A stretch of DNA of 58,514 bases, taken from a bacterium. GTDB taxonomy: Bacteria > Patescibacteriota > Minisyncoccia > Phycocordibacterales > UBA5272. The translations under genes were made by a program, and so were the position numbers. The stretch is taken from NCBI GenBank assembly GCA_043718735.1, contig JAYSVC010000011.1:1-58514 (forward strand). Reading direction: 5' to 3'. This document shows, one piece after another, positions 6,392 through 45,309 of the stretch. The notes beneath the pieces were generated by a model. The model had not been told where the DNA came from. It made no database searches and saw nothing but the letters and a program-made list of their open reading frames with translations. Each line of letters begins with the position of its first letter. The first letter of the stretch is position 1.

Positions 6392-7663
6392 ATGTTAGAC
6401 ATAAAATTCATAAGAGAAAATAAAGAGCTAGTTGCCATGGCTGCAAAAAAGAAAAGAATTAATTTTAATGTGGAAGACCTTTTGAAAGTTGATTCACAGA
6501 GGATAGAACTGATGCAAAAAGTAGAAGATGTAAAAGCAAAACAAAATAAAGCAAGTGAAGAGATAAGTAAAGCAAGTCCAGAAATAAGAAGCATGTTAAT
6601 AAAAGCCATGTCTGACCTAAAAGCTGATATAAAAAAAGATGAGGAAAAATTAGACAAAGTCATGATGTCTTGGCGTGACCTAATGCTTAGTGTCCCAAAT
6701 ATTCCTGACATGAGTGTTCCTGACGGAGAGAGTGATGCTGATAATGTAGAGGTAAAAAGATGGGGCGATCCTACTGAGTTTAATTTCGAAGCAAAAGACC
6801 ATGTAGAGATAATGACAAAATTAAAAATGGTAGACTTCGAACGTGGGGTCAAGGTTCATGGTTTCCGTGGTTACTTTTTAACTGGTGATGGAGTTCGCTT
6901 GTCACTTGCTATTTGGCAATATGCCATGGATTTTTGGAGTAAAAAAGGATTTACACCAGTTATACCTCCAGTAGTTGTGCGTAGAAATATTTTTATGGGC
7001 ACAGGGTATCTGCCTCAGGGTGAAGATGATTTGTATAAGACTCAAGATGGTGAATATCTGGCTGGCACTGCAGAAGTTCCGATCATGGGGATGCATGCTG
7101 ATGAGTTATTAGAAAACCTTGAGGGCAATCCTATAAAATATTTAGGATTCTCACCATGTTTTCGTCGTGAAGCAGGTAGTCACAGTAAAGATGTTAAGGG
7201 ACTAATACGTGTTCAAGAGTTCTACAAATGGGAACAGGTTGTGTTATGTGAAGCTAGTCACTCAGTCTCTGTGCAAATGCATGAAGAGATAAACAGAAAT
7301 ACAGAGGAGTTCATCGAGACTCTTGGTATACCATATCACACAGTTGTTAATTGTGGAGGTGATCTCGGTATGGGACAAGTAAAAAAGTATGACATAGAAT
7401 TATGGGTACCAAAAGAAGAAAAATATAGAGAGATATCTTCTGCTTCTTACTTTCATGATTTTCAAACTAGAAGATCTAATATAAAATATAAAAGCGCAGA
7501 TGGTAAAAATAAATTTGCCCACTCATTAAATTGTACAGCTATACCAACTCCAAGAATATTAGTATCATTAATTGAAAATTATCAAAACGCTGATGGTAGC
7601 GTTACTGTGCCAGAAGTATTACAAAAATATATGGGAAAGGAAGTTATAAAAAATAATAATTAA
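6392..7663 (+). CDS. serS: Seryl-tRNA synthetase
   Basis: N-terminal coiled-coil tRNA-binding arm and a class II core (FSPCFRREAGSHSKD motif 2). Typical 423 aa. Confidence 0.92.
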   Translation: MLDIKFIRENKELVAMAAKKKRINFNVEDLLKVDSQRIELMQKVEDVKAKQNKASEEISKASPEIRSMLIKAMSDLKADIKKDEEKLDKVMMSWRDLMLSVPNIPDMSVPDGESDADNVEVKRWGDPTEFNFEAKDHVEIMTKLKMVDFERGVKVHGFRGYFLTGDGVRLSLAIWQYAMDFWSKKGFTPVIPPVVVRRNIFMGTGYLPQGEDDLYKTQDGEYLAGTAEVPIMGMHADELLENLEGNPIKYLGFSPCFRREAGSHSKDVKGLIRVQEFYKWEQVVLCEASHSVSVQMHEEINRNTEEFIETLGIPYHTVVNCGGDLGMGQVKKYDIELWVPKEEKYREISSASYFHDFQTRRSNIKYKSADGKNKFAHSLNCTAIPTPRILVSLIENYQNADGSVTVPEVLQKYMGKEVIKNNN

Positions 7664-11003: not shown

Positions 11004-12549
11004 AATCAAGATTGTAAATGATTTTAACTTAGAAAAAGAAAGTAATGATATAAGTATAAATAAAAATATTTTATACAAAATGTCTCGTGAGCATCGAGTA
11101 GAAAATAACTGGTCACTAATACATGCTCAAAAGTTAGCATTAGAAAATAAGGTAAAACTTTTTGTGGTATACACTCATTATGATAAAAAATGGGAATGTG
11201 TTTCGCGTACGGTAGACTTTATCTTAGATAATTTATCATTAGTGCAAAAAGATTTATTTGAAAAAAATATTTCTTTTGAATATGTGAATATAAATCATAG
11301 AGTAGGAGCGAGTATTAAAAATAAAACTAGTGAATTTATAAGTAATTACTGCATAGAAAATAATATAGGGTTAGTGGTTACAGACATGGCACCTCAGAGA
11401 GAACATAATTGTTGGCAAGAAGATTTTTTAAATAATCAGAAAAAACTAAATAAAAATATACCACTACATGTAGTAGATTCTAGAAATATTATACCGATTT
11501 GGATTACTAGTGATAAGCAGGAATTTGCAGCTAGAACAATTAGAACAAAAATATACAAAAAAATAGAAGGATTCGTAATGGGTGCTGAAAATAAATTTAT
11601 AAAAATAAAAAAACATATACACAATGATGAAAAATATGTGCAAAACATATTTAAAAATACTGATTGGGTAAAAATTAGAAAAGATTTTAAATGCATAGAA
11701 AGTGATTTAGTTTTTGAGACTACTAATTTTCTTTCTGGTGAAGCAGAAGCTAAAAAAGTTTTAAATACATTTTTAAAAGAAAGATTAGAAAATTATGACA
11801 CAGATAGAAATGTGGCCACACTACGTGGACAGTCAGACTTATCGCCCTATATTACTTTTGGGATGATAAGCAAGCAAGATATTTTTAACATTATTTTAGA
11901 TAAATATAAATTAGAAGTCACTGACGTCCTAGATCCTGAGAAAAATGGCTCAGGTAATGCAATGCAAGAAAATCAAACAGGGTTAGAAGATAAATTATTA
12001 AAAAGCATAAGAGCATTCGTCGAGGAGTTGGTAATTAGGGGTGACCTGACTGACAATTATGTCTATCACAATAATGATTATGATAATTTTAACGGTCTGG
12101 CTGATTGGGCAAAGCTTTCTTTGAATAAAGGTAGGAGCGATAAAAGAGAATATTGTTATGAATTAAAAGATTTTGAAAAAGCAAATACTCATGATACATT
12201 GTGGAATGCTGCACAAAATGAGATGATGAGAAGTGGTAAAATGCATGGTTATATGCGTATGTATTGGGCGAAAAAGATTTTAGAATGGACGGAAAATCCA
12301 GAAGAGGCAATACTGATTGCTATATATTTAAATGATAAATATAATCTTGATGGCTGGTGTCCTAATGGTTTTGCTGGGATACTTTGGAGTATCGGTGGAC
12401 TACATGATAGGGCATGGTTCCCGAGGCCTATTTTTAGCACTATACGCTACATGGCTGTTTCTGGTTGTGAGAAAAAGTTTGATATAAAAGAATATAAAAA
12501 CAAATGGAATCAGGGCCAGAGAAACGTATTAGAAAATAAGCTTTTTTAA
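10990..12549 (+). CDS. phr: Class II CPD deoxyribodipyrimidine photolyase
   Basis: [18 protein letters not shown]-terminal block. C-terminal [16 protein letters not shown] and [24 protein letters not shown]. Overlaps clpB by 14 nt. Confidence 0.85.
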
Positions 12550-35322: not shown

Positions 35323-35859
35323 ATGCAAATAATAACCCCTAAAATAATTAATGCCATTAACTTGGCTACAAGGCTACACAGTGGCCACATAAGAAAAGAT
35401 GAGCACAATACACCATATATCTCACATCTCTTCGCTGTGGCCATGTTTTTGGCGAGTGTGACTGATGATGAGGACATCATCGTGGCGGGACTGATGCACG
35501 ACGCTCTCGAGGACGTTGCTGATTATGAATATGAAAACTTAGAAGCTGATTGTGGTAAGAGGGTGGCTGACATAGTGGCTGGAGTAACTGAAAATAAAAT
35601 ACTTCCTTATAAAGATAGGAAGATACTTTACTTAGAAAATCTAAAAACAGGAAGCCTAGAAAGTCTGATGGTGAGCGTGGCTGATAAGCTACATAATGCT
35701 ATATCACTGAGTGATGTGAATGACTCACATAACATGAACAAAGAGACTCAGATACAGATATATACAGAAGTATATAATATAGCGAGCAGTAGATTTGAAA
35801 AAGACTCAAGGGAATTTTCTTTAGTCTTAGAATTAGAAAAAGCAATTAGTGTGTTGTAG
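35323..35859 (+). CDS. HD-domain phosphohydrolase (RelA/SpoT-type small alarmone hydrolase-like)
   Basis: LATRLHSGHIRKDEHNTPYISHL... and GLMHDALED (H...HD...D pattern). Confidence 0.7.
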   Translation: MQIITPKIINAINLATRLHSGHIRKDEHNTPYISHLFAVAMFLASVTDDEDIIVAGLMHDALEDVADYEYENLEADCGKRVADIVAGVTENKILPYKDRKILYLENLKTGSLESLMVSVADKLHNAISLSDVNDSHNMNKETQIQIYTEVYNIASSRFEKDSREFSLVLELEKAISVL

Positions 35860-35865
35860 TTTTTG

Positions 35866-35874
35866 TGGTATAAT
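35866..35874 (+). promoter_or_regulatory. Extended -10 box TGGTATAAT, 8 nt from the methyltransferase ATG
   Basis: It is part of a 16-mer, TTTTGTGGTATAATAT, repeated exactly at 45911-45926. Confidence 0.55.
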
Positions 35875-35882
35875 ATAGAAAT

Positions 35883-36989
35883 ATGGCAAACAGCAATCTT
35901 ACAAATGCTAAAAAAGCAAAAAATGATGAGTTCTATACTCAGTACAATGATATTGAAAAAGAGGTAAATGCGTACTTAGAATATAATCCAGATGTATTTA
36001 AAAATAAAGTAATACTATTGCCATGTGATGATCCTGAGTGGAGCAATTTTACAAAGTTTTTCTCTCAAAACTTCGAGAGGTTAGGAATTAAAAAACTGAT
36101 CAGTACTAGTTATGCTTCGGAAAGTAAAGTGTTTAAATCAAATTATGTGCCAACACTTTTTGAAAGTAAAAGTGATATTTATGATATAAAGAAAACAAAT
36201 ACAAAAGGTAAAATATCTATTTTAGACAGAGACAGAAACAGAAACAAAGATAAGAAAATAAATGTAGAAGATATACATTTTGATAGGTACCTGTCAGAAG
36301 ATGGTGATTTTAGAAGCGAGGAGGTAAAAGCTTTACGTGATGAAGCAGACATCATAATTACTAATCCTCCATTTTCACTATTTCGAGAGTTTTTAAATTG
36401 GATAGTTGAGGCTGATAAAAAGTTTTTGATAATTGGAAGCATGAACGCTATTGTGTATACCGATGTGTTTCCCCTTATTAAAGACAACAAAGTTTGGCTG
36501 GGCGTTAAGTCTACAAGCCAAGCAATGTATTTTAAAACTTCTGATAAAGAATATGCGAACCGTGTGAGCAGTGAGAGATCGGAAGGTTCTTGGTGGAAGA
36601 GAATAGACGGAGATGTATGCATTGGTATAAATAATTCTTGTTGGTTTACAAACATGGATCATGGGAGACGTCATGAAATATTACCGTTGATGACAATGGA
36701 AGATAACTTGAAGTATAGTAAACATAAAGAAATTAAAGGTAAAGAAAGTTATGACAAGTATGATAACTATGATGCGATAGAAATACCTTTTATTGACTCT
36801 ATTCCCAGGGACTACGATGGGGTTATGGGTGTGCCTATAAGTTTTATGGATAAATATAACCCAGAACAGTTTGAAATAGTTGGTTCTAATCGAGGGGTCG
36901 ATCAGGACCCAGACGGTATTTATGGTAGAGGCACCTTCCTTGAAGGAAAAGAAACTTTTAAGAGAATTTTTATTAAACATAAAAAGTAA
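35883..36989 (+). CDS. EcoRI-methylase-like N6-adenine DNA methyltransferase
   Basis: N-terminal NAKKAKNDEFYTQYNDIEKE...LLPCDDPEWSNFTKFF is typical of the EcoRI_methylase family. Catalytic motif IV is IIITNPPF (36363-36374). Confidence 0.75.
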   Translation: MANSNLTNAKKAKNDEFYTQYNDIEKEVNAYLEYNPDVFKNKVILLPCDDPEWSNFTKFFSQNFERLGIKKLISTSYASESKVFKSNYVPTLFESKSDIYDIKKTNTKGKISILDRDRNRNKDKKINVEDIHFDRYLSEDGDFRSEEVKALRDEADIIITNPPFSLFREFLNWIVEADKKFLIIGSMNAIVYTDVFPLIKDNKVWLGVKSTSQAMYFKTSDKEYANRVSSERSEGSWWKRIDGDVCIGINNSCWFTNMDHGRRHEILPLMTMEDNLKYSKHKEIKGKESYDKYDNYDAIEIPFIDSIPRDYDGVMGVPISFMDKYNPEQFEIVGSNRGVDQDPDGIYGRGTFLEGKETFKRIFIKHKK

Positions 36990-36994
36990 GGTGT

Positions 36995-38599
36995 ATGATG
37001 TTAAAAAATATAAAAATAAATAATTATAGAAGTATTAAAGAAATAGATTTTGAGATTGAACAAATATCAGACATGAGTTTTACTTATGGGTTATTGGGTA
37101 TAAATGAGGCTGGAAAATCTAGTATTTTAGAGGCTTTATCATTCAAAGATTCTAGAATAAATACTCTACCAAAGATAAATGATTTTTACAAAGGAAATAA
37201 AGAAGATTTTCAGGTTTTATATAAATATGAAATATCCGATTTTGAAATTGAGGAAATTAAAAAATTATCAGTATTTGAAAGTTTAACAAAGGATTCTTTC
37301 GAAGGTGTCGACACTCTATCAGAAGAAGAGTTCGACACATCATTTTTTTTAGACAAAAACTTAAAACCCTCGGAATTAAAAAAAATAGATCTGATATACA
37401 CATATAAAAGAGATCAGAATGTTACGAGACAGGCATCCATATCCTTTTCAGAAGTTAAAGATCAGAAATTTAAAATATTTTTAGAGGCTAACCTTTTACA
37501 AGAAATAGAAAAAATATCTCACAAAACTACTTTTTGGAAGTATGACCCAAAGTACTTAATTGATAATAATATTCCTTTGAATATATTCACACAGAAGATT
37601 GATGATTTTATACCATTAAGAAACTGTTTCAATTTGATAGGCTTACCTACTCACGAAAAAATAAAAGAAGCTATAGATAAGATATTGCCAGGTGAAAATT
37701 CTAGCGAAAGAGAAAAACTGCAGGATGATATGGGAACAAAGATAACGGAACATATTAAAAATGTTTGGAAAGGTCATGATATAACAATTACTTTTAATAT
37801 ATCAGGTGATATTCTTAATTTTCACATAAAGGAAAATAACTCAAATGAATTGGCCGAGAAGATAGATCAGAGGAGCGACGGATTTAAACAGTTTATTTCT
37901 TTTATATTAAGTGTTTCAATTGAAAATACAACTCAAAATCTAAGTAACACCATAATATTACTTGATGAGCCAGAAACTCATTTACACCCAAAAGCTCAAC
38001 AGTTATTTCTAGAAGAACTTATTCTTTTAACAAAAGAAAATAACAATATTTGTTTTTTTGCTACACACTCAAATTATATGGTGGATAAAAGTAATATTGA
38101 CAGAAATTTTTTAATTACAAAAGATTACACAGACAGAACTAACAAAAAAACTACAAAAGGAAGGTTTGATAAAAAGAATGCTAGTTATGCATATGTAAAT
38201 TTTAAAGCTTTTCAGATTTACTCAACAGATTATCATAATGAACTTTATGCAGATTTAGAAATAAATTTTCCAGATATTTTTAAAAAAAAAATAAATTTTA
38301 CACACGTATTAGGTATAGAAAAAGAAAATGTGCATAAAAATGAAGAAGAACAAAAAAAATGTAGTGATTGCAAAAAATACATTAAAACAAATAAAGACAA
38401 AACAACGTATACAGAATACATATCTGAACAAAAATATATAAGAAATCAGATACATCACCCAGAAAATAAAAATGGAAATGAAAGATATACACAGGAGAGA
38501 TTAGAAAAATCTATTAATTTTATGTTGAAATTAATTTCAGATGAGAAACAGAAAGAAGTTGCGATGGTAAGTAAAACAATAAAAAGTAAAGCTTTATGA
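36995..38599 (+). CDS. ABC/SMC-like (AAA_15/21-type) ATPase with an unassigned C-terminal domain carrying an RNxxxH motif
   Basis: Walker A GINEAGKSS (37097-37123), signature-like QRSDGFKQF, Walker B ILLDEPETHLHP, and H-loop FFATHS. The C-terminal part of about 170 aa contains CSDCKKY and YIRNQIHHPEN (38441-38458). Confidence 0.75.
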   Translation: MMLKNIKINNYRSIKEIDFEIEQISDMSFTYGLLGINEAGKSSILEALSFKDSRINTLPKINDFYKGNKEDFQVLYKYEISDFEIEEIKKLSVFESLTKDSFEGVDTLSEEEFDTSFFLDKNLKPSELKKIDLIYTYKRDQNVTRQASISFSEVKDQKFKIFLEANLLQEIEKISHKTTFWKYDPKYLIDNNIPLNIFTQKIDDFIPLRNCFNLIGLPTHEKIKEAIDKILPGENSSEREKLQDDMGTKITEHIKNVWKGHDITITFNISGDILNFHIKENNSNELAEKIDQRSDGFKQFISFILSVSIENTTQNLSNTIILLDEPETHLHPKAQQLFLEELILLTKENNNICFFATHSNYMVDKSNIDRNFLITKDYTDRTNKKTTKGRFDKKNASYAYVNFKAFQIYSTDYHNELYADLEINFPDIFKKKINFTHVLGIEKENVHKNEEEQKKCSDCKKYIKTNKDKTTYTEYISEQKYIRNQIHHPENKNGNERYTQERLEKSINFMLKLISDEKQKEVAMVSKTIKSKAL

Positions 38600-39438
38600 A
38601 AATAGAAATAGTCTTACAGCTAACAAATAATTTTGAAGAACATTCTAACAAAGCTAATGATGATCTAGAATTTTGGTTTGCTCGTGATCTGCAACAACTT
38701 TTAGGATATGCAAAATGGGAGAACTTTATAAGTGTTATAAATAAAGCAAAAACTGCTTGTGAAGTGTCAGGAGAAGATTGTCAATACCATTTTCCTGATA
38801 TCAGGAAAATGGTCGATATTGGCTCTGGTGCAAAAAAAGAGATAGAAGATTTTATGCTCACACGCTATGCATGCTACCTTATAGCTCAAAATGGAGACCC
38901 TGGTAAAGAGGCTATAGCCTTTGCTCAAACATATTTTGCGATACAGACAAGAAAAGCAGAACTGATAGCAGAAAGAATAAGCGAGATAGAAAGATTAAAA
39001 GCTAGAAAAAAATTAACTGAAACAGAAAAAGAATTATCAAGTGTAATATTTCAACAAACTGGAGGCAATAACAATTTCGCACTCATTAGAAGTAAAGGTG
39101 ATACTGCTTTTTTTGGTGGTAAATCTACGAAAGATATTAAAATACTTTGGAATACAGGAAGTAAGCCTGTGGCAGATTTTATGCCTTCAATTTTACTAAA
39201 GGCAAAAGATTTTGCAACAGAAATAACTATACACAATGCAAAAGAAAATAATATGCGAACTGAGAATCAAATCTCGAATGAACATATTACAAATAATAAG
39301 TCAGTTAGAGATACTCTTATAAGTCGAGGTATAGTGCCAGAGAAATTAAAGCCAAGTGTTGATATAAAAAAGATAGAAAGAAAAGTAAAGTCAGAAAATA
39401 AAAAAGATATAAAAGTTCTTTTAAAAAGTAAAAATTAA
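38596..39438 (+). CDS. dinD: DNA-damage-inducible protein D (DinD) family protein
   Basis: [19 protein letters not shown]..., [16 protein letters not shown] and [15 protein letters not shown] are DinD-like. The ATGA start/stop overlap with the ATPase implies translational coupling. Confidence 0.65.
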
Positions 39439-39457
39439 AATAAAATATAATAAAAAT

Positions 39458-40621
39458 ATGGAAACAAAATTAAGAACAGAAATAACAGTAAGAGAGATGT
39501 GTGATGGTTTTGTTTATAATGAATTAGAAGGCAAAGGACTTTTTGGGCTTAGTGGAACACTTACAATACAACCAGAATATCAGAGAAATTATATATACGC
39601 TGATGGCAAGAGGGATGTTGCAGTTATTGAGTCTATCTTAAAAGGGTATCCACTGGGACTCATTTATTTTAATAAAACTGAGGAAGGTAAATTAGAAGTA
39701 CTAGATGGGCAGCAACGTATTACGAGTATAGGCAGATATGTAACAGGTAAATTTGCAATAAAAGATATTAACGGTATGGAGCAATATTTTTCTGGTATTG
39801 CAGACAGTGAGAAAGAAAAGATTCTTAATGCAAAACTTTTGATATATGAGTGTTCTGGTGAAGAGCCAGAAATAAAACAATGGTTCAAAACTATTAACAT
39901 AACTGGAGTGCCACTCACCACCCAGGAGATAAATAATGCAATATATTCTGGATCTTTTGTTACACTCGCAAAAGAAGAATTTAGCAATAGTCAAAATTCT
40001 AATATACAAAAATGGAGTGCCTATATAAAAGCGAGTGCTATAAGGCAAGGGTTTTTAGAGAGAGCTTTAGAGTGGGTTAGTGATGGAAGTGTTGATAATT
40101 ATATGAGTAAACATAGACATGATGCAAATATAGACGAACTTAAAAATTATTTTAACAAAGTTATAGATTGGGTGTCCAGCATATTTGAAAATGTAGAAAA
40201 TGAAATGTCCGGCTTAGAGTGGGACAGATTATACAGAAAGTACGGAGAAAATAAATATGATAGTAAAAAAGTCGGAGAAGAAGTTAAGAAACTTTATGCA
40301 GATAATATTATAAAGAGTAGATCTGGTATATTTGAGTTTATTTTAGGAGGATCTGTAGATTATAAGTTATTAGATATTAGATTTTTTGAAGATTCTGTAA
40401 AAAAATCTGTTTACACTACGCAAACTGACACAGCAAAACTAGAAAACAAATCAAATTGTTCATTTTGTGCTATTGGTCATGATGCAAGCAAAACCAAGAT
40501 TTGGAAATTGGAAGAAATGGATGCAGATCATGTGTCAGCTTGGAGTCGTGGAGGTGAGACAAATATAAAAAACTGCGAGATGCTTTGTAAAAGTCACAAT
40601 AGAGCAAAGGGGAATAGGTAA
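39458..40621 (+). CDS. DUF262 (ParB-like/GmrSD N-terminal) protein fused to an HNH endonuclease
   Basis: DUF262 motifs [11 protein letters not shown] and LDGQQRITS (about 39704). C-terminal [35 protein letters not shown]. Confidence 0.8.
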
Positions 40622-40647: not shown

Positions 40648-40656
40648 TGATATAAT
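40648..40656 (+). promoter_or_regulatory. Extended -10 box TGATATAAT
   Basis: It lies 18 nt upstream of the ATG at 40675. Confidence 0.5.
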
Positions 40657-40674: not shown

Positions 40675-41784
40675 ATGGTAAAGAAAATAATTAAAAAAGA
40701 GACTATAAAGAAACCAACTATTTCCAAAATGGAAACAGTTGGAGTTGTTGCAAAAAATGCAACAGTTCAAAATGGAAACAAAAGCAATATGCAAAAAATG
40801 CACATACCACTTAAAACTCAGAAACCTGTTATATTTCAAGCTAAAAACGGAGCGATAGAGCTACGTGGTGATATAGCAAAAGAGACTTTGTGGGCAACAC
40901 GTATGCAAATGGCTGAAATTTTTGAAGTAAATCCACAAGCAATATCTAAGCATTTGTTAAATATATACAAAGATGGTGAATTAGATAGGCAGGCAACTAG
41001 TTCCAAAATGGAACTAGTTCAAAATGAGAAGGGTAGAATCGTAAAACGTTCTATAGATATTTATAATTTAGACATGTTGATATCCGTCGGATATAGGATT
41101 AATTCTCTTATGGGAACAAATTTTCGTAAATGGGCTACAAAAACTTTAAAAGATCATATAACAAAAGGCTACACTTTAAATAAAAAGGTCATAGCTAAAA
41201 ATTATAATGAATTTTTATCTGCCGTAAATGAAATAAAAGCATTACTACCTGAGGGTAATTTTTCTGATATAAAAAATGTATTAGATCTGGTTAATGCCTT
41301 TGCAGGCACTTGGCTTACTCTTGACTCATATGATAAAGAAAATTTTACCAAAACCAAAACTACAAGAAAGAAAATTAACTTAACTGCGGGTGAGTTAACT
41401 TCTGCATTGCTAGAATTAAAAAATGACTTGATTAAAAAAGGTGAGGCGACAGAAATATTTGCCATAGATAGAAATAAAGAAAGTTTAGAAGGTATAATAG
41501 GTAATGTTATGCAATCATTTTCTGGTAAAGATCTTTATATTAGTATAGAGGAAAAAGCAGTGCATTTATTATACTTTATAGTTAAGAATCATCCATTTAT
41601 TGACGGGAATAAGAGAAGCGGTGCTTTTTCTTTTATATGGTTTTTGAATAAGTATAAATTATTAGATAAAGAAAAAATATCTCCAGAAGCTTTGGCTGCT
41701 ATTACTCTTTTAATTGCAGAAAGCGACCCAGCACATAAGGAGAAAATAACTAAGCTAGTAACTAGTTTAATAAGTAAAAAATAA
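40675..41784 (+). CDS. RhuM-family N-terminal domain fused to a Doc-type Fic domain
   Basis: RhuM-like block LWATRMQMAEIF...ISKHL.NIY..GEL......SKMELVQ.E..R.V.R....YNLDMLISVGYRINS..GT.FRKWAT. The Fic core is HPFIDGNKR (41590-41616), the Doc-like GNKR variant. Confidence 0.7.
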   Translation: MVKKIIKKETIKKPTISKMETVGVVAKNATVQNGNKSNMQKMHIPLKTQKPVIFQAKNGAIELRGDIAKETLWATRMQMAEIFEVNPQAISKHLLNIYKDGELDRQATSSKMELVQNEKGRIVKRSIDIYNLDMLISVGYRINSLMGTNFRKWATKTLKDHITKGYTLNKKVIAKNYNEFLSAVNEIKALLPEGNFSDIKNVLDLVNAFAGTWLTLDSYDKENFTKTKTTRKKINLTAGELTSALLELKNDLIKKGEATEIFAIDRNKESLEGIIGNVMQSFSGKDLYISIEEKAVHLLYFIVKNHPFIDGNKRSGAFSFIWFLNKYKLLDKEKISPEALAAITLLIAESDPAHKEKITKLVTSLISKK

Positions 41785-41790
41785 AAGCAT

Positions 41791-44700
41791 ATGCAAAACC
41801 AAACACAAAACCAAATCAAGAATATCAATGACCAAAGATTCGAAGACAGATACGAGTCGCTAAATGACATGCAGAAAAAGGCGGTGGATAATATAGATGG
41901 ACCGCTGTTAGTTGTCGCTGGCCCAGGATCAGGAAAAACAGAATTACTGTCACTGCGTACTGCAAACATATTAAAAGTGTCTCAGGTGTCACCTAATAAT
42001 ATATTACTACTAACTTTTACCGACAGTGGGGCACATAACATGCGTGAGAGGTTGGTGGGGCTAATAGGGGAAGCTGGGTATAAGGTGGCAGTGTATACTT
42101 TTCATTCATTTGCGAGCGACATCATGGGTCGTTATGCTGAGCACTTTTTCGATGGGGCTAATTTCCGTCCAGCTACAGATATAGAAAGGATAAATATATT
42201 AGAGAATATTTTAAATGAATTACCAAGAGATGCAAAATTAAATTCAAAACATCCTGAGATGGGTTATACTTACTTATCTGACATTGTATCTTGTATTTCT
42301 GCGCTTAAAAAAGGTAATCTGAATGCTGATGAGTGGCGTAATAAAATAAATATTTTAGAAAAAGAATTTGAACGAGTTAACAGTGTAGTAACTGAAAAAT
42401 TGCTAGAAATAAAAGGCAAGAGTAAATATGATGTGTTGTTGCCAGCATACACAAGCATATATGAAGACCTAAACACTTTAGCAGAAGAAAATAACATTGC
42501 AAAATACTTAGTAAATACTCTAGCTCTCGAACTTAAACAAAGCATAGAAACAGGCAAGACCAGCAACCTCACAGATTTTAAAAATGAATATTTTGTTTTT
42601 GAAGATGGTACAGAAAAATTTATTTTAAAAAATAGCCAAAAAGATAAAATACGAAAATGGTTAGAATTAGCTGATGTGTGTGAAAAATATAATACTCAAA
42701 TGAACAAATTAGGTTTATATGATTTTGACGATATGATATTCAAAGTTGGTCGTGAACTTGAAAAAAATAATACACTCAGAAATGAATTAGAAGAAAAATA
42801 TCAATACATCATGATTGATGAATTCCAAGACACTAATGACGCACAGTTTGCACTAGTTAAAAACCTAACTAGTAATAAAATAAATGAAGGCAGACCAAAT
42901 GTTATGGCAGTGGGTGATGACCAAGCAATATTCAAATTCCAAGGAGCGGAACTAGACAATATTAATAAGTTTATAAATAGTTTTGTTGATGTTGAATTAG
43001 TAACACTTGATAAAAACTATAGATCTACACAAAATATTTTAGACCATTCTAGAAGTCTAATAACCAAAGTGGAAGACAGATTAGAAGTTCGTTATGCAGG
43101 GAAGATAAATAAAAAAATAATCGCAAGTAATAAGAAATTATTAGAAGAGCAAGAAGGAAAAATAATAGAAAAGTCTTTTGAGAATATACACAGTGAGATG
43201 GATTATATTTGCACTGAGATAAAAAATATTTTAATGAATGGGGTAAACGCAAATGAGATTTCTATAATTTCTAGGACGCACATTAATTTGAAATCATTAG
43301 TAGAAATTATGAATCAGTATCAAATACCATTTTCTTATGAAAAAAAAGAAAACGTTTTTGAAAAACAGCCTATAAAGGAGCTTATAAATATTGTTTCTTT
43401 TGTGAGTAATGGTTTTGATGGATCTTCTGATTATCTTTTACCAGAAATAATGAGTTACAAGTTTTGGAATATAAATAGATTAGATATTTGGAATATCGCT
43501 GAAAAAGTAAAAGAGGGAGAAGTTAGTGTTGGTGACGTAGGAGAAAAAATATACAAAAGATTGTCTTGGTTAACAGTTATGAGTAAGTCGGATAATGTTG
43601 AAATAAAAAATATCGCCAGCTTTCTAATAGAACTAATTAGTGACGCAAAAAGCATGCCACTACCTCACCTGATAGATAAGATAATAGGCACTAATGAATG
43701 GGAGATAAACGGTGAACATGACGATGATTTTTCTGAAGAAAAAAAATTAAATTACAAATCTCTATTTCGAAGTTATTATTTTGGAAAAGATAATTTTGAC
43801 CATAATAAGCCTGAGTATCTAGAGTTCCTCTTTGCCCTTCGCACTTTTATGGGGGCACTTCGTGAATATCGAAGTGGTGAAGTGTTGTATGCTAAGGACT
43901 TAGAAGAGTTTATAAATATTTATAATAATAATCAAAACCTAACATTAAAATTATCTTCACCATTTGCCACCAGTAGTGAGGCAGTGGTTCTGCAAACTGC
44001 ACATAAAAGTAAAGGTCTAGAATACGAATATGTTTTTATAATCAACAGTGATGAGGACGAGTGGAATGGTAGAAAGAGAAGTAACAAAATAGGTATGCCT
44101 ATGAATTTAAAATTATTACCTAGTAATGATGAGTTGTCAGACAGGACAAGATTGTATTATGTCGCTATGACTCGTGCCAAGCATACACTTTATATCACAC
44201 ACAACAATGAAAAGTTTTCAGCACTTTTTTCTGATGAACAAAATGAAAAAAATAAATTAGAAAAATTAGAAGCGAAAAAACAAAAAGCATTACTTAAAAA
44301 AGAAGGAAAAGGTAATTCAGATATTGAAAAAAGTAGCCTCTCAAAAGAATTAGTAAATAGCTTGTATGTAAAACCAACTCAAATATTACTCCAAGATGAG
44401 AAGATTTTATTAAAAAGACTCTTAGAGAATTATAAAATGCCAGTGACTCACCTTATTAATTATCTTAATATTGGAAAAGTCGGACCAGAAAAATTTATAG
44501 AGCAGAACCTTTTAAAGTTTCCACAAGCTATGAGCCCAAGTAGTGTCTATGGGTCTGCCATGCACGCCGCTATGCAAAATTATTATTTGTATTTTAAAAA
44601 ATATCAGAAATTAGCAAGTAATGAAAAACTAATAGAGTATTTTACAAATGCACTAAGTGCAGGCACAATGACTAAAATAGATTATGATAAATACTTAGAA

Positions 44701-45309
44701 TCAGGTATTAAAAATTTAAATATTTATATAGAAGATTTAAAAAGTAGAAATGGAAATACAAAAGATGGAAGGCTCGGTATAAAAGAAAGTGATATGGTTG
44801 AAGTAAACTTTCTAAATGAAGGAGTGTGTATCGGTGAGGCTCATGCTACTGGGAAAATAGACAAGATGAGTTTTGATGGAGAAAGTATAAAAGTAACAGA
44901 CTTTAAAACAGGGAAAAGTTTTGAAGATTGGGGAGATGGATCTGGTTATGATAAAGTAAAATTACATTTTAATCAGTATCAGCTCGCTTATTATTATCTA
45001 TTAATTAAAAATAGTAGAACTTATCAAAATTATAAAGTAGAGTATGGTTACATAGAATTCTTAGAATTAGATGACAATAAAAAGATAAATATTCTAGAAT
45101 TAAAATTAGATGAAGAGCTAATAAGTAGGGTGGAAAGGTTGACAAATATTATTTATCAAAAAGTTATGAATCTTGATTTTCCTGACACTGCAAAATATAA
45201 GTTAAAGAATAATAAAAGTGAAGTAGAGGAAAATTATGAAGAAAAAAGTGAGGTTACTTTGAAAGATATATTAAGATTTGAAGATGATTTGCTAAATGGT
45301 GAGATATAA
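41791..45309 (+). CDS. AddA-like UvrD/Rep-family helicase with a C-terminal RecB-type PD-(D/E)XK nuclease
   Basis: Walker A AGPGSGKTE and motif II MIDEFQDTN. The C-terminal nuclease has GKIDKMSF...IKVTDFKTGK...QYQLAYYY. It starts 6 nt after the RhuM-Doc stop. Confidence 0.85.
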   Translation: MQNQTQNQIKNINDQRFEDRYESLNDMQKKAVDNIDGPLLVVAGPGSGKTELLSLRTANILKVSQVSPNNILLLTFTDSGAHNMRERLVGLIGEAGYKVAVYTFHSFASDIMGRYAEHFFDGANFRPATDIERINILENILNELPRDAKLNSKHPEMGYTYLSDIVSCISALKKGNLNADEWRNKINILEKEFERVNSVVTEKLLEIKGKSKYDVLLPAYTSIYEDLNTLAEENNIAKYLVNTLALELKQSIETGKTSNLTDFKNEYFVFEDGTEKFILKNSQKDKIRKWLELADVCEKYNTQMNKLGLYDFDDMIFKVGRELEKNNTLRNELEEKYQYIMIDEFQDTNDAQFALVKNLTSNKINEGRPNVMAVGDDQAIFKFQGAELDNINKFINSFVDVELVTLDKNYRSTQNILDHSRSLITKVEDRLEVRYAGKINKKIIASNKKLLEEQEGKIIEKSFENIHSEMDYICTEIKNILMNGVNANEISIISRTHINLKSLVEIMNQYQIPFSYEKKENVFEKQPIKELINIVSFVSNGFDGSSDYLLPEIMSYKFWNINRLDIWNIAEKVKEGEVSVGDVGEKIYKRLSWLTVMSKSDNVEIKNIASFLIELISDAKSMPLPHLIDKIIGTNEWEINGEHDDDFSEEKKLNYKSLFRSYYFGKDNFDHNKPEYLEFLFALRTFMGALREYRSGEVLYAKDLEEFINIYNNNQNLTLKLSSPFATSSEAVVLQTAHKSKGLEYEYVFIINSDEDEWNGRKRSNKIGMPMNLKLLPSNDELSDRTRLYYVAMTRAKHTLYITHNNEKFSALFSDEQNEKNKLEKLEAKKQKALLKKEGKGNSDIEKSSLSKELVNSLYVKPTQILLQDEKILLKRLLENYKMPVTHLINYLNIGKVGPEKFIEQNLLKFPQAMSPSSVYGSAMHAAMQNYYLYFKKYQKLASNEKLIEYFTNALSAGTMTKIDYDKYLESGIKNLNIYIEDLKSRNGNTKDGRLGIKESDMVEVNFLNEGVCIGEAHATGKIDKMSFDGESIKVTDFKTGKSFEDWGDGSGYDKVKLHFNQYQLAYYYLLIKNSRTYQNYKVEYGYIEFLELDDNKKINILELKLDEELISRVERLTNIIYQKVMNLDFPDTAKYKLKNNKSEVEENYEEKSEVTLKDILRFEDDLLNGEI

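Follow-up and report, generated by a model that had tools for sequence, protein, structure and literature searches.

Does a DNA methyltransferase that is followed by an ABC-type ATPase and a DinD homologue constitute a defence system able to work without a restriction endonuclease? The question is raised by three genes at positions 35,861 to 39,438 of a 58,514-nt stretch of bacterial DNA (the window; contig JAYSVC010000011.1 of assembly GCA_043718735.1, Patescibacteriota). An earlier note on this DNA had described them as one transcription unit and as a candidate unconventional restriction or abortive-infection system.

We find that a fourth gene belongs to the unit. In our reading, to which we assign a probability of about 0.78, the locus is a four-gene mobile operon that consists of a Type II-like restriction-modification (RM) pair, a methyltransferase (MTase, M) and a restriction endonuclease (REase, R), with two add-on passengers, the ATPase and DinD, carried between M and R. 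The architectural statement taken by itself is given a similar confidence, and the operon structure, the gene content, the cassette borders, the pairing of M with R and the independent association of both passengers with RM operons are established by the comparisons that follow. What had the appearance of a new nuclease-less system is, on this reading, an RM pair with passengers. An RM pair with accessory genes is of a known kind; what is new is that a two-gene RM pair has a cargo slot and that an ATPase family, as yet uncharacterised, is linked to RM.

The transcription unit and its methyltransferase–endonuclease pair

The unit opens with an extended -10 promoter motif, TGGTATAAT (35866-35874, + strand), located 8 nt from the ATG of the MTase gene (35883-36989, +; 368 aa). 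The TAA stop of this gene is separated by 5 nt (ggtgt) from the ATG of the ATPase gene (36995-38599, +; 534 aa), whose TGA in turn overlaps the ATG of dinD as ATGA (38596-39438, +; 280 aa). In the public annotation the ATPase is one residue shorter (533 aa, from a second ATG at 36998), and the alignment of homologues is compatible with both starts. A fourth, co-oriented gene begins 19 nt past the DinD stop (39458-40621, +; 387 aa) and encodes a protein with a DUF262 (ParB-type NTPase) domain and an HNH domain (PF03235, PF01844). Beyond it, a further extended -10 motif, TGATATAAT (40648-40656, +), signals where the next transcription unit begins and thus gives the operon its downstream border. 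Because the next + strand TGNTATAAT after 35866 is the one at 40648, past the REase stop and just before the following gene, because no terminator-like site was found on the + strand between 35866 and 40648, and because the co-oriented gene follows DinD so closely, the transcription unit most likely comprises four genes rather than three. The coupling and the promoter described in the earlier note stand, and so does its picture of a tightly coupled operon in a defence context; its unit of three genes does not, the REase gene having been missed.

The promoter motif belongs to a wider pattern. TGNTATAAT occurs 21 times in the window versus 7.3 +/- 2.6 times in shuffled sequences (about 3-fold enrichment), more often than chance would give, and those of its sites that were compared with the list of open reading frames (ORFs) precede start codons by distances from a few nt to a few dozen. 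Since the motif is both enriched and close to starts, very short leaders or leaderless mRNAs are suggested to be the rule in this genome of ~32% GC. The sites, among them 6322, 12576, 13654, 15737, 23392, 30970, 35866, 40648, 45916, 49727 and 51901, usually stand ~8-60 nt 5' of start codons or of a tRNA-Trp gene, with no -35 box needed.

The first and fourth genes are both recognisable as RM components. The MTase matches the EcoRI_methylase family PF13651 at 1.4e-114 (383 bits, cutoff 26.4) and the PADLOC MTase_II model at 1.6e-90, and its translation contains the catalytic motif IIITNPPFSLF, consistent with the N6-adenine MTase of the EcoRI family, with an NPPF motif, that had been proposed. 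The N-terminal part of the REase is a DUF262/GmrSD_N domain (PF03235 at 2.4e-20) with a DGQQR motif (LDGQQRITS in the translation), and its C-terminal nuclease domain is of the PF01844 HNH type (DADH...N...HN). Over its full length (residues 8-386) the protein matches PDLC03418, a REBASE-derived PADLOC REase_II model for a 'Type II restriction enzyme', at 1.2e-82. No sequence relatives of the MTase, DinD or the REase were found in the PDB.

Genes of the same two families are found side by side in 27 other loci. Orthologues of the 387-aa REase at least 60-72% identical occur across candidate-phyla bacteria, Bacteroidota, Spirochaetota and Firmicutes plasmids. For one of them (P0215), an EcoRI_methylase gene lies directly upstream in all six genomic contexts, with the genes abutting or overlapping; M also adjoins R in a further 19 loci from metagenomes and on two plasmids with RefSeq annotation, one of Enterococcus faecium and one of Leuconostoc mesenteroides. 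The gap between M and R is 0-30 nt in 21 of the 27 loci and ~100-190 nt, with no gene between, in the remaining 6. None of these 27 loci carries the ATPase or DinD. Because M stands directly beside R in so many loci, the MTase is predicted to have a cognate nuclease, and M plus R have the signature of a two-gene RM pair. In its separate, co-oriented M and R genes, adjacent or overlapping in most copies, in its NPPF motif and in its full-length REase_II match, the pair resembles a Type II RM system; it differs in that M and R of the window are split by cargo and in that the REase has a DUF262 NTPase domain and exceeds its MTase in conservation. The pair is also present, in decayed form, in a Saccharimonadales metagenome-assembled genome (L034, 5164-9044), where the MTase is split in two and the REase has internal deletions.

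These observations bear directly on the idea from which the question arose, that of a self-contained system without a nuclease, in which the MTase would mark self, the ATPase would be the effector and DinD the modulator. The tight coupling of the three genes behind one promoter speaks for it, as does the presence of the same three genes in a related cassette (contigs L081-L084). However, in L081-L083 as in the window an REase gene comes immediately next, this REase regularly accompanies the EcoRI-family MTase elsewhere, and 27 loci have the two together without either passenger. We also sampled relatives of the ATPase at 80 loci, one genome per species, 36 of which encode full-length or near-full-length members; the combination of MTase, ATPase and DinD is absent from all 36, and DinD and the ATPase are each found apart in other RM operons. 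We consider the nuclease-less system extremely improbable. The combination that had been called fixed thus occurs only in the L081-L084 cassette, together with the REase, and the locus that could not be named has an MTase and an REase that match the Type II RM models of PADLOC. Among three outcomes that had been named beforehand as counting against the proposal (failure of the three genes to co-occur in other genomes, a match to a known system, and an orphan MTase), two were found overall; the observation of the locus is confirmed and its interpretation is supported in part.

The DUF262 domain raises another possibility, namely that the fourth protein belongs with GmrSD or BrxU among the modification-dependent nucleases of Type IV and that the MTase next to it is unrelated or an orphan. 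The DUF262 nucleases that have been studied do sense modified DNA, the N-terminal domain with its DGQQR motif is shared with GmrSD, and weak matches to HEC-05 and HEC-06 were obtained. These matches are at 1e-5, in contrast to 1e-82 for REase_II; the C-terminal nuclease domain is PF01844 HNH, with no match to the DUF1524 domain of GmrSD; and the linkage to an EcoRI-family MTase is near-obligate, co-oriented and often overlapping, across phyla and plasmids. We consider a Type IV enzyme beside an unrelated MTase very unlikely.

Palindrome avoidance was tried as a guide to the recognition site and set aside. GTAC is the most depleted 4-bp palindrome of the window (73 observed versus 143 expected, z = -5.9), and AATT and TAATTA are also low there; in L082 the depletion of GTAC and AATT is not convincing, and for L082 alone it is not significant. 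The depletion in the window may reflect restriction-site avoidance, and GTAC is a weak lead.

Cassette borders and the slot between M and R

The ATPase has a single close relative, 79% identical, which is encoded on contigs L081-L084, where the gene order is again MTase, ATPase, DinD, REase. Nucleotide identity between L081 and the window rises from ~35% outside the cassette to 77-98% from ~35836-35883, and it falls to ~39% directly past the REase stop (40621), so the homology spans the MTase ATG to the REase stop. The genes around the cassette in L081-L083 (tRNA-Ser and pheT upstream, tRNA-Ile and a zinc-finger protein downstream) are unrelated to those around it in the window. By these comparisons, the unit of inheritance is the four genes, a putatively horizontally mobile operon at ~35866-40621. 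At the protein level, the MTase and the ATPase are 72% and 79% identical to their L081 counterparts, while DinD and the REase are 98% and 94% identical. Because the two halves differ in their divergence from L081, the comparison shows apparent recombination inside the cassette.

In relatives, the RM cassette is located directly 3' of tRNA genes. That of L081 lies between tRNA-Ser (6776-6862) and tRNA-Ile (11709-11782), and that of another copy (L091) begins 23 nt past tRNA-Trp (732-803). The cassette of the window instead follows an HD-domain gene, past an rpoA-rplQ-rplM-rpsI block.

M and R of the window are separated by 2.45 kb of cargo, and the cargo differs in other copies of the pair. In L091, whose REase is 82% identical, a 199-aa ORF, a 281-aa ORF and a Fic gene lie between M and R; in L114, and in L092, a contig that contains the R side only, the cargo is a Fic gene and a YoeB toxin gene with a small upstream ORF; in L093, it is a T5orf172 (GIY-YIG-like) gene and a 102-aa ORF; and in L095, genes for a Bro-N protein and RhuM are found directly upstream of R. 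In total, M adjoins R in ~27 loci versus 5 independent loci with cargo. We conclude that the M-to-R junction is, from its sequence contexts, a probable cargo slot of the RM pair. The 199-aa and 281-aa ORFs beside Fic in L091 (1908-3363) have no Pfam match and are candidates for RM-embedded functions.

Cargo of this kind has precedents. Type I RM loci carry dinD, RhuM, Fic/DOC or GIY-YIG genes, toxins and ATPases between their core genes (PMC9881135), and second-line genes inside an RM operon are documented for PrrC in EcoprrI (PMC12707154, PMC3506569) and for TgvAB in a type I RM of V. cholerae (PMC11411939). The window resembles such type I inserts (TgvAB of V. cholerae VPI-2, the Campylobacter rlo genes and the DinD, RhuM, Fic and GIY-YIG insertions) in that defence or toxin genes are placed between RM core genes and in that the repertoire of DinD, RhuM, Fic and ATPases is the same; it differs in that its host operon is a two-gene Type II-like pair instead of hsdRMS. 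The embedding of second-line genes, documented for type I, would thereby extend to a widespread two-gene Type II-like pair.

A slot with changing cargo may also be taken as a merely permissive site, which would ensure expression and co-transfer of whatever enters it; the passengers would then be selfish hitch-hikers, or addiction or regulatory genes, with no antiviral role. The heterogeneity of the cargo, which includes the YoeB toxin with its small upstream ORF and the Fic genes, fits this explanation, and the unequal divergence of the cassette halves from L081 points to recombination and modular exchange. Against it, both passengers are strongly conserved (DinD at least 70% identical across phyla; the ATPase with invariant Walker A, Walker B and C-terminal-domain residues), which argues for a selected function; both families appear repeatedly in RM operons specifically; and DinD figures among the phage-defence candidates of PADLOC (PDC-S13). 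There is, in our estimate, an outside chance that the passengers are hitch-hikers.

Both passengers associate independently with RM operons

The ATPase family has its own preferred genomic setting. On the same strand, the immediate upstream neighbour is HsdM in 10 of 27 cases and the immediate downstream neighbour is HsdS in 10 of 22. As identified with HsdM, HsdS and HsdR profiles, 14 of the 32 ATPase loci having flanking genes (~44%) lie inside type I RM operons, and ~10 of these 14 sit between hsdM and hsdS, where starts and stops mostly overlap by a few bases or are within a few nt of one another. Genes for C5 and N4/N6 MTases, Shedu SduA, AbiC and Fic are also among the neighbours. In addition, the decayed RM pair of L034, whose MTase and REase are of the same families as those of the window, has a 36%-identical, 5'-truncated ATPase gene following R; this is an independent association of the ATPase with the RM pair, in a different gene order. 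We infer that the family is an uncharacterised, RM-associated ABC ATPase.

The ATPase part of the 534-aa protein (residues 1 to ~365) matches AAA_15 and AAA_21 at ~1e-17, and a family-specific C-terminal domain occupies residues ~395-534. In an alignment of 32 homologues, the Walker A (GxNExGKS), Walker B (DEPETHLH) and RSDGF motifs are invariant; in the C-terminal domain, R483 is invariant and H414, N415, H487 and N491 are near-invariant, with the consensus TLPTYIRNCIHHPxN. The AlphaFold2 (AF2) model has a pLDDT (predicted local distance difference test) score of 87, as does the C-terminal domain modelled alone. The best Foldseek matches in the PDB are SMC/Rad50 heads, GajA, retron PtuA and OLD (E ~1e-13 to 1e-12), all to the ATPase part only, in agreement with the previous assignment to the OLD/GajA/PtuA-like ABC class. 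The 5-nt spacing behind the MTase that had been reported with it was likewise confirmed. PADLOC matches of the protein to AriA (75 bits), PtuA (52 bits), Old, GajA and NsnB are at the level of a generic ATPase.

The C-terminal domain gave no significant Foldseek match (best E 0.48 in the PDB and 0.15 among the BFVD viral models), no Pfam match and no PDB sequence match. A profile of the domain retrieved 956 clusters (50% identity) from 1.84 billion proteins, in each case matching at the C-terminal end. Eight longer hits were scanned and all carry AAA_15/AAA_21, and the short hits inspected mostly begin at an ATPase-internal 'M(I/V)DK'; apparent stand-alone copies start at an internal 'MIDK' and look like fragments, and the idea of a stand-alone form was dropped. 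Two candidate folds were also considered and rejected. A HEPN or anticodon-nuclease C-terminus had been suggested by 'RNQIHH', but the conserved spacing is R-x3-H, and the domain has neither a Pfam or PDB sequence match nor a PDB or BFVD fold match to its pLDDT-87 model; a His-Me (beta-beta-alpha) C-terminus is contradicted by the lack of a conserved His in the hairpin preceding the helix. In the ATPase of the window and in its 79%-identical relative, the C-terminal region is ~50 residues larger and contains a CxxC motif (CSDC and CSYC, respectively) at 38357-38368, residues ~455-458; enlargement and motif are both absent from the other aligned members, and the CxxC may be a lineage-specific metal site.

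How the ATPase relates to named systems can be followed through its fold, its C-terminus and its partners. With OLD/GajA, Septu and retron PtuA and PARIS AriA it shares the ABC fold class (AAA_15/AAA_21), these being its top structural matches after the SMC/Rad50 heads. It differs from OLD and Gabija by having no Toprim match in Pfam and a different C-terminal domain, and from PARIS, Septu and Gabija by the lack of a partner of the AriB (DUF4435/Toprim), PtuB (HNH) or GajB (UvrD-like helicase) kind in the conserved cassette; among the neighbours in the window, PADLOC has no match to AriB or PtuB, and the family typically has hsdM and hsdS beside it rather than the PARIS or Septu partners. Gabija itself, an ATPase with a downstream UvrD-like gene, was considered and rejected: there is no Toprim, and the helicase of the window, a 1172-aa UvrD/PD-(D/E)XK protein, is two genes away, outside the conserved cassette. 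A parallel in arrangement is PrrC of the EcoprrI type Ic RM system (and RloC), since that too is an ABC NTPase with a C-terminal add-on domain encoded within an RM operon, and the recurrence of the ATPase family between hsdM and hsdS resembles that of prrC among hsd genes. The two nevertheless differ: the ATPase of the window has no sequence match to ATPases of the PrrC type (no AAA_13), no HEPN fold and no Rx4-6H motif, and has instead IRNxIH, with R483/H487 as R-x3-H.

DinD is likewise found with RM systems of several types. The DinD of the window, with a Bro-N N-terminal domain and a DinD C-terminal region, matches the equivalog model NF008573 over residues 2-272 with 358.4 bits (cutoff 242), which bears out the homology and, with the ATGA overlap, the coupling described before. 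It also matches PADLOC PDC-S13 at 3.4e-110 and PDLC03083, a PADLOC type I specificity-subunit model, at 9e-52. A 90%-identical DinD is encoded between hsdM and hsdS in L122, and a 71%-identical one, in L125-L129, between the res and mod genes of a type III RM system. DinD is present in type I, II and III RM operons. It resembles E. coli DinD (PcsA) in its equivalog-level match, its similar length and its Bro-N domain; in contrast, the E. coli gene is stand-alone, LexA-regulated and SOS-induced, whereas that of the window is presumably coupled to its RM operon constitutively. For the E. coli protein, on which the biochemistry of DinD rests, inhibition of postsynaptic RecA filaments is reported by Uranga et al. 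2011, as cited in PMC4457935. Separately, in L124 (2017-7037), an 80%-identical DinD gene directly follows a Gabija-like pair (an OLD-type ATPase-Toprim protein and a UvrD-like helicase) and faces recA, an arrangement of interest given this reported action on RecA filaments.

Because each family recurs separately in RM operons of several types, the ATPase and DinD appear to be independent RM-associated modules and not a pair. A specific ATPase–DinD pair was examined and rejected: DinD is near the ATPase in 1 of the 36 other loci (L010), 5 kb off and beyond hsdR, and the ATPase beside the 90%-identical DinD of L122 is of a different ABC family with motif-level similarity only. For the same reason of recurrence within several RM types, the passengers are best regarded as add-on modules that the RM core would not need, and probably not as the effector of a nuclease-less system.

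An alternative is that all four proteins form one integrated system, in which the DUF262 protein would sense DNA and signal to the ABC ATPase, as proposed for NsnA and NsnB of Menshen, with DinD and the HNH domain as effector or modulator and the MTase for self-protection. Menshen is defined by NsnA (DUF262 and ParBDB), NsnB (ABC ATPase and DUF3696) and the effector NsnC, in this order, and a ParB-SMC-type logic has been proposed for it (PMC12065111). In the window, too, a single operon encodes an ABC ATPase together with a DUF262/ParB-type protein; in PADLOC, the REase weakly matches NsnA (4.9e-31) and the ATPase weakly matches NsnB (7.3e-13). The translational coupling of the genes, the conservation of the four-gene unit in two lineages and the independent, decayed linkage in L034, where the 36%-identical ATPase lies just past M and R, all fit such a system. 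However, M and R occur in 27 loci without ATPase or DinD, about half of the sampled ATPase loci lie in type I RM operons without a DUF262 gene, and other copies have unrelated cargo in the same slot. The NsnB match is weaker than the generic AAA_15-type matches. Moreover, Menshen itself was rejected as an identification, there being no NsnC-like gene, no DUF3696 tail and an order of ATPase, DinD, DUF262 instead of A-B-C; unlike NsnA, the DUF262 protein of the window has its own HNH domain and is linked to an MTase, and the partners mostly occur apart. We regard an integrated four-protein system as unlikely.

For the RM pair with two passengers, a working order of events can be proposed. By analogy with known Type II RM systems, the MTase would methylate adenine in a short site and so mark host DNA, and the DUF262-HNH enzyme would cut unmarked incoming DNA. 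By analogy with PrrC-EcoprrI and with the ABC-ATPase defence systems Gabija, Septu and PARIS, the ATPase, conceivably a sensor or abortive-infection component, may stay latent in contact with the RM proteins, and nucleotide binding or hydrolysis may control its C-terminal domain once restriction is inhibited or overwhelmed. DinD might modulate recombination or the SOS response following cleavage, either limiting the RecA-dependent rescue of cut phage DNA or tempering SOS after self-cleavage. A PrrC-like guard mechanism of the ATPase, which is drawn from these analogies, is tentative, with the odds clearly below even. In a broader version, the ATPase family would be a new PrrC/PARIS-like guard that docks on RM complexes of different types (type I between hsdM and hsdS, and in the window a type II pair) and fires a new effector domain once restriction is blocked, and DinD would be a general RM accessory controlling RecA-dependent processing; this we offer as doubtful, although conceivable.

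Several points weigh against the reading of a Type II-like pair with passengers. Among 21 loci, 90% of the 210 pairwise comparisons show higher conservation for the REase than for the MTase, with a mean identity of 66.5% versus 57.8%. The MTase has a hypervariable segment of ~45 aa (window residues ~210-255), the putative target-recognition region, and the REase has no region as variable. A conserved REase with a hypervariable MTase is odd for a simple cognate Type II pair. The assignment of the REase rests on a REBASE-derived hidden Markov model and on gene linkage, and the studied DUF262 enzymes (GmrSD, BrxU, SspE and TgvAB) are modification-dependent, a polarity opposite to that of a classical REase, which leaves a non-classical polarity a small probability. 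On the side of the passengers, the ATPase's C-terminal domain shows neither a nuclease fold nor a HEPN fold that can be recognised, the family was sampled at 36 species-representative loci only, and a real complex of four proteins would be equally compatible with the ATGA overlap and the close spacing. The hypervariable segment further appears to form several sequence types; that of the window recurs in none of the other 21 loci, and that of L081, whose REase is 94% identical, recurs in several. If this segment sets the specificity of the MTase, the matching of one REase to varied segments is a puzzle.

Genes beside the cassette

Two + strand genes follow the four-gene unit in the window. The first (40675-41784, +) encodes a fusion of RhuM and Fic/DOC (PF13310, PF02661; PADLOC PDC-S23 at 1.6e-106) and has TGATATAAT as its own promoter motif; it is absent from L081-L083. 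The second (41791-45309, +) encodes the 1172-aa AddA/RecB-like protein, a UvrD-family helicase with a PD-(D/E)XK nuclease, and is absent from the L081 cassette. Because neither is found in L081, the two genes are not part of the four-gene unit. In PADLOC the UvrD/PD-(D/E)XK protein matches GajB in a generic way only; it probably acts in repair as a helicase-nuclease and not as a part of Gabija. RhuM, Fic and Bro-N genes are found beside or inside other copies of the RM pair as well (L091, L092/L114, L095 and L107).

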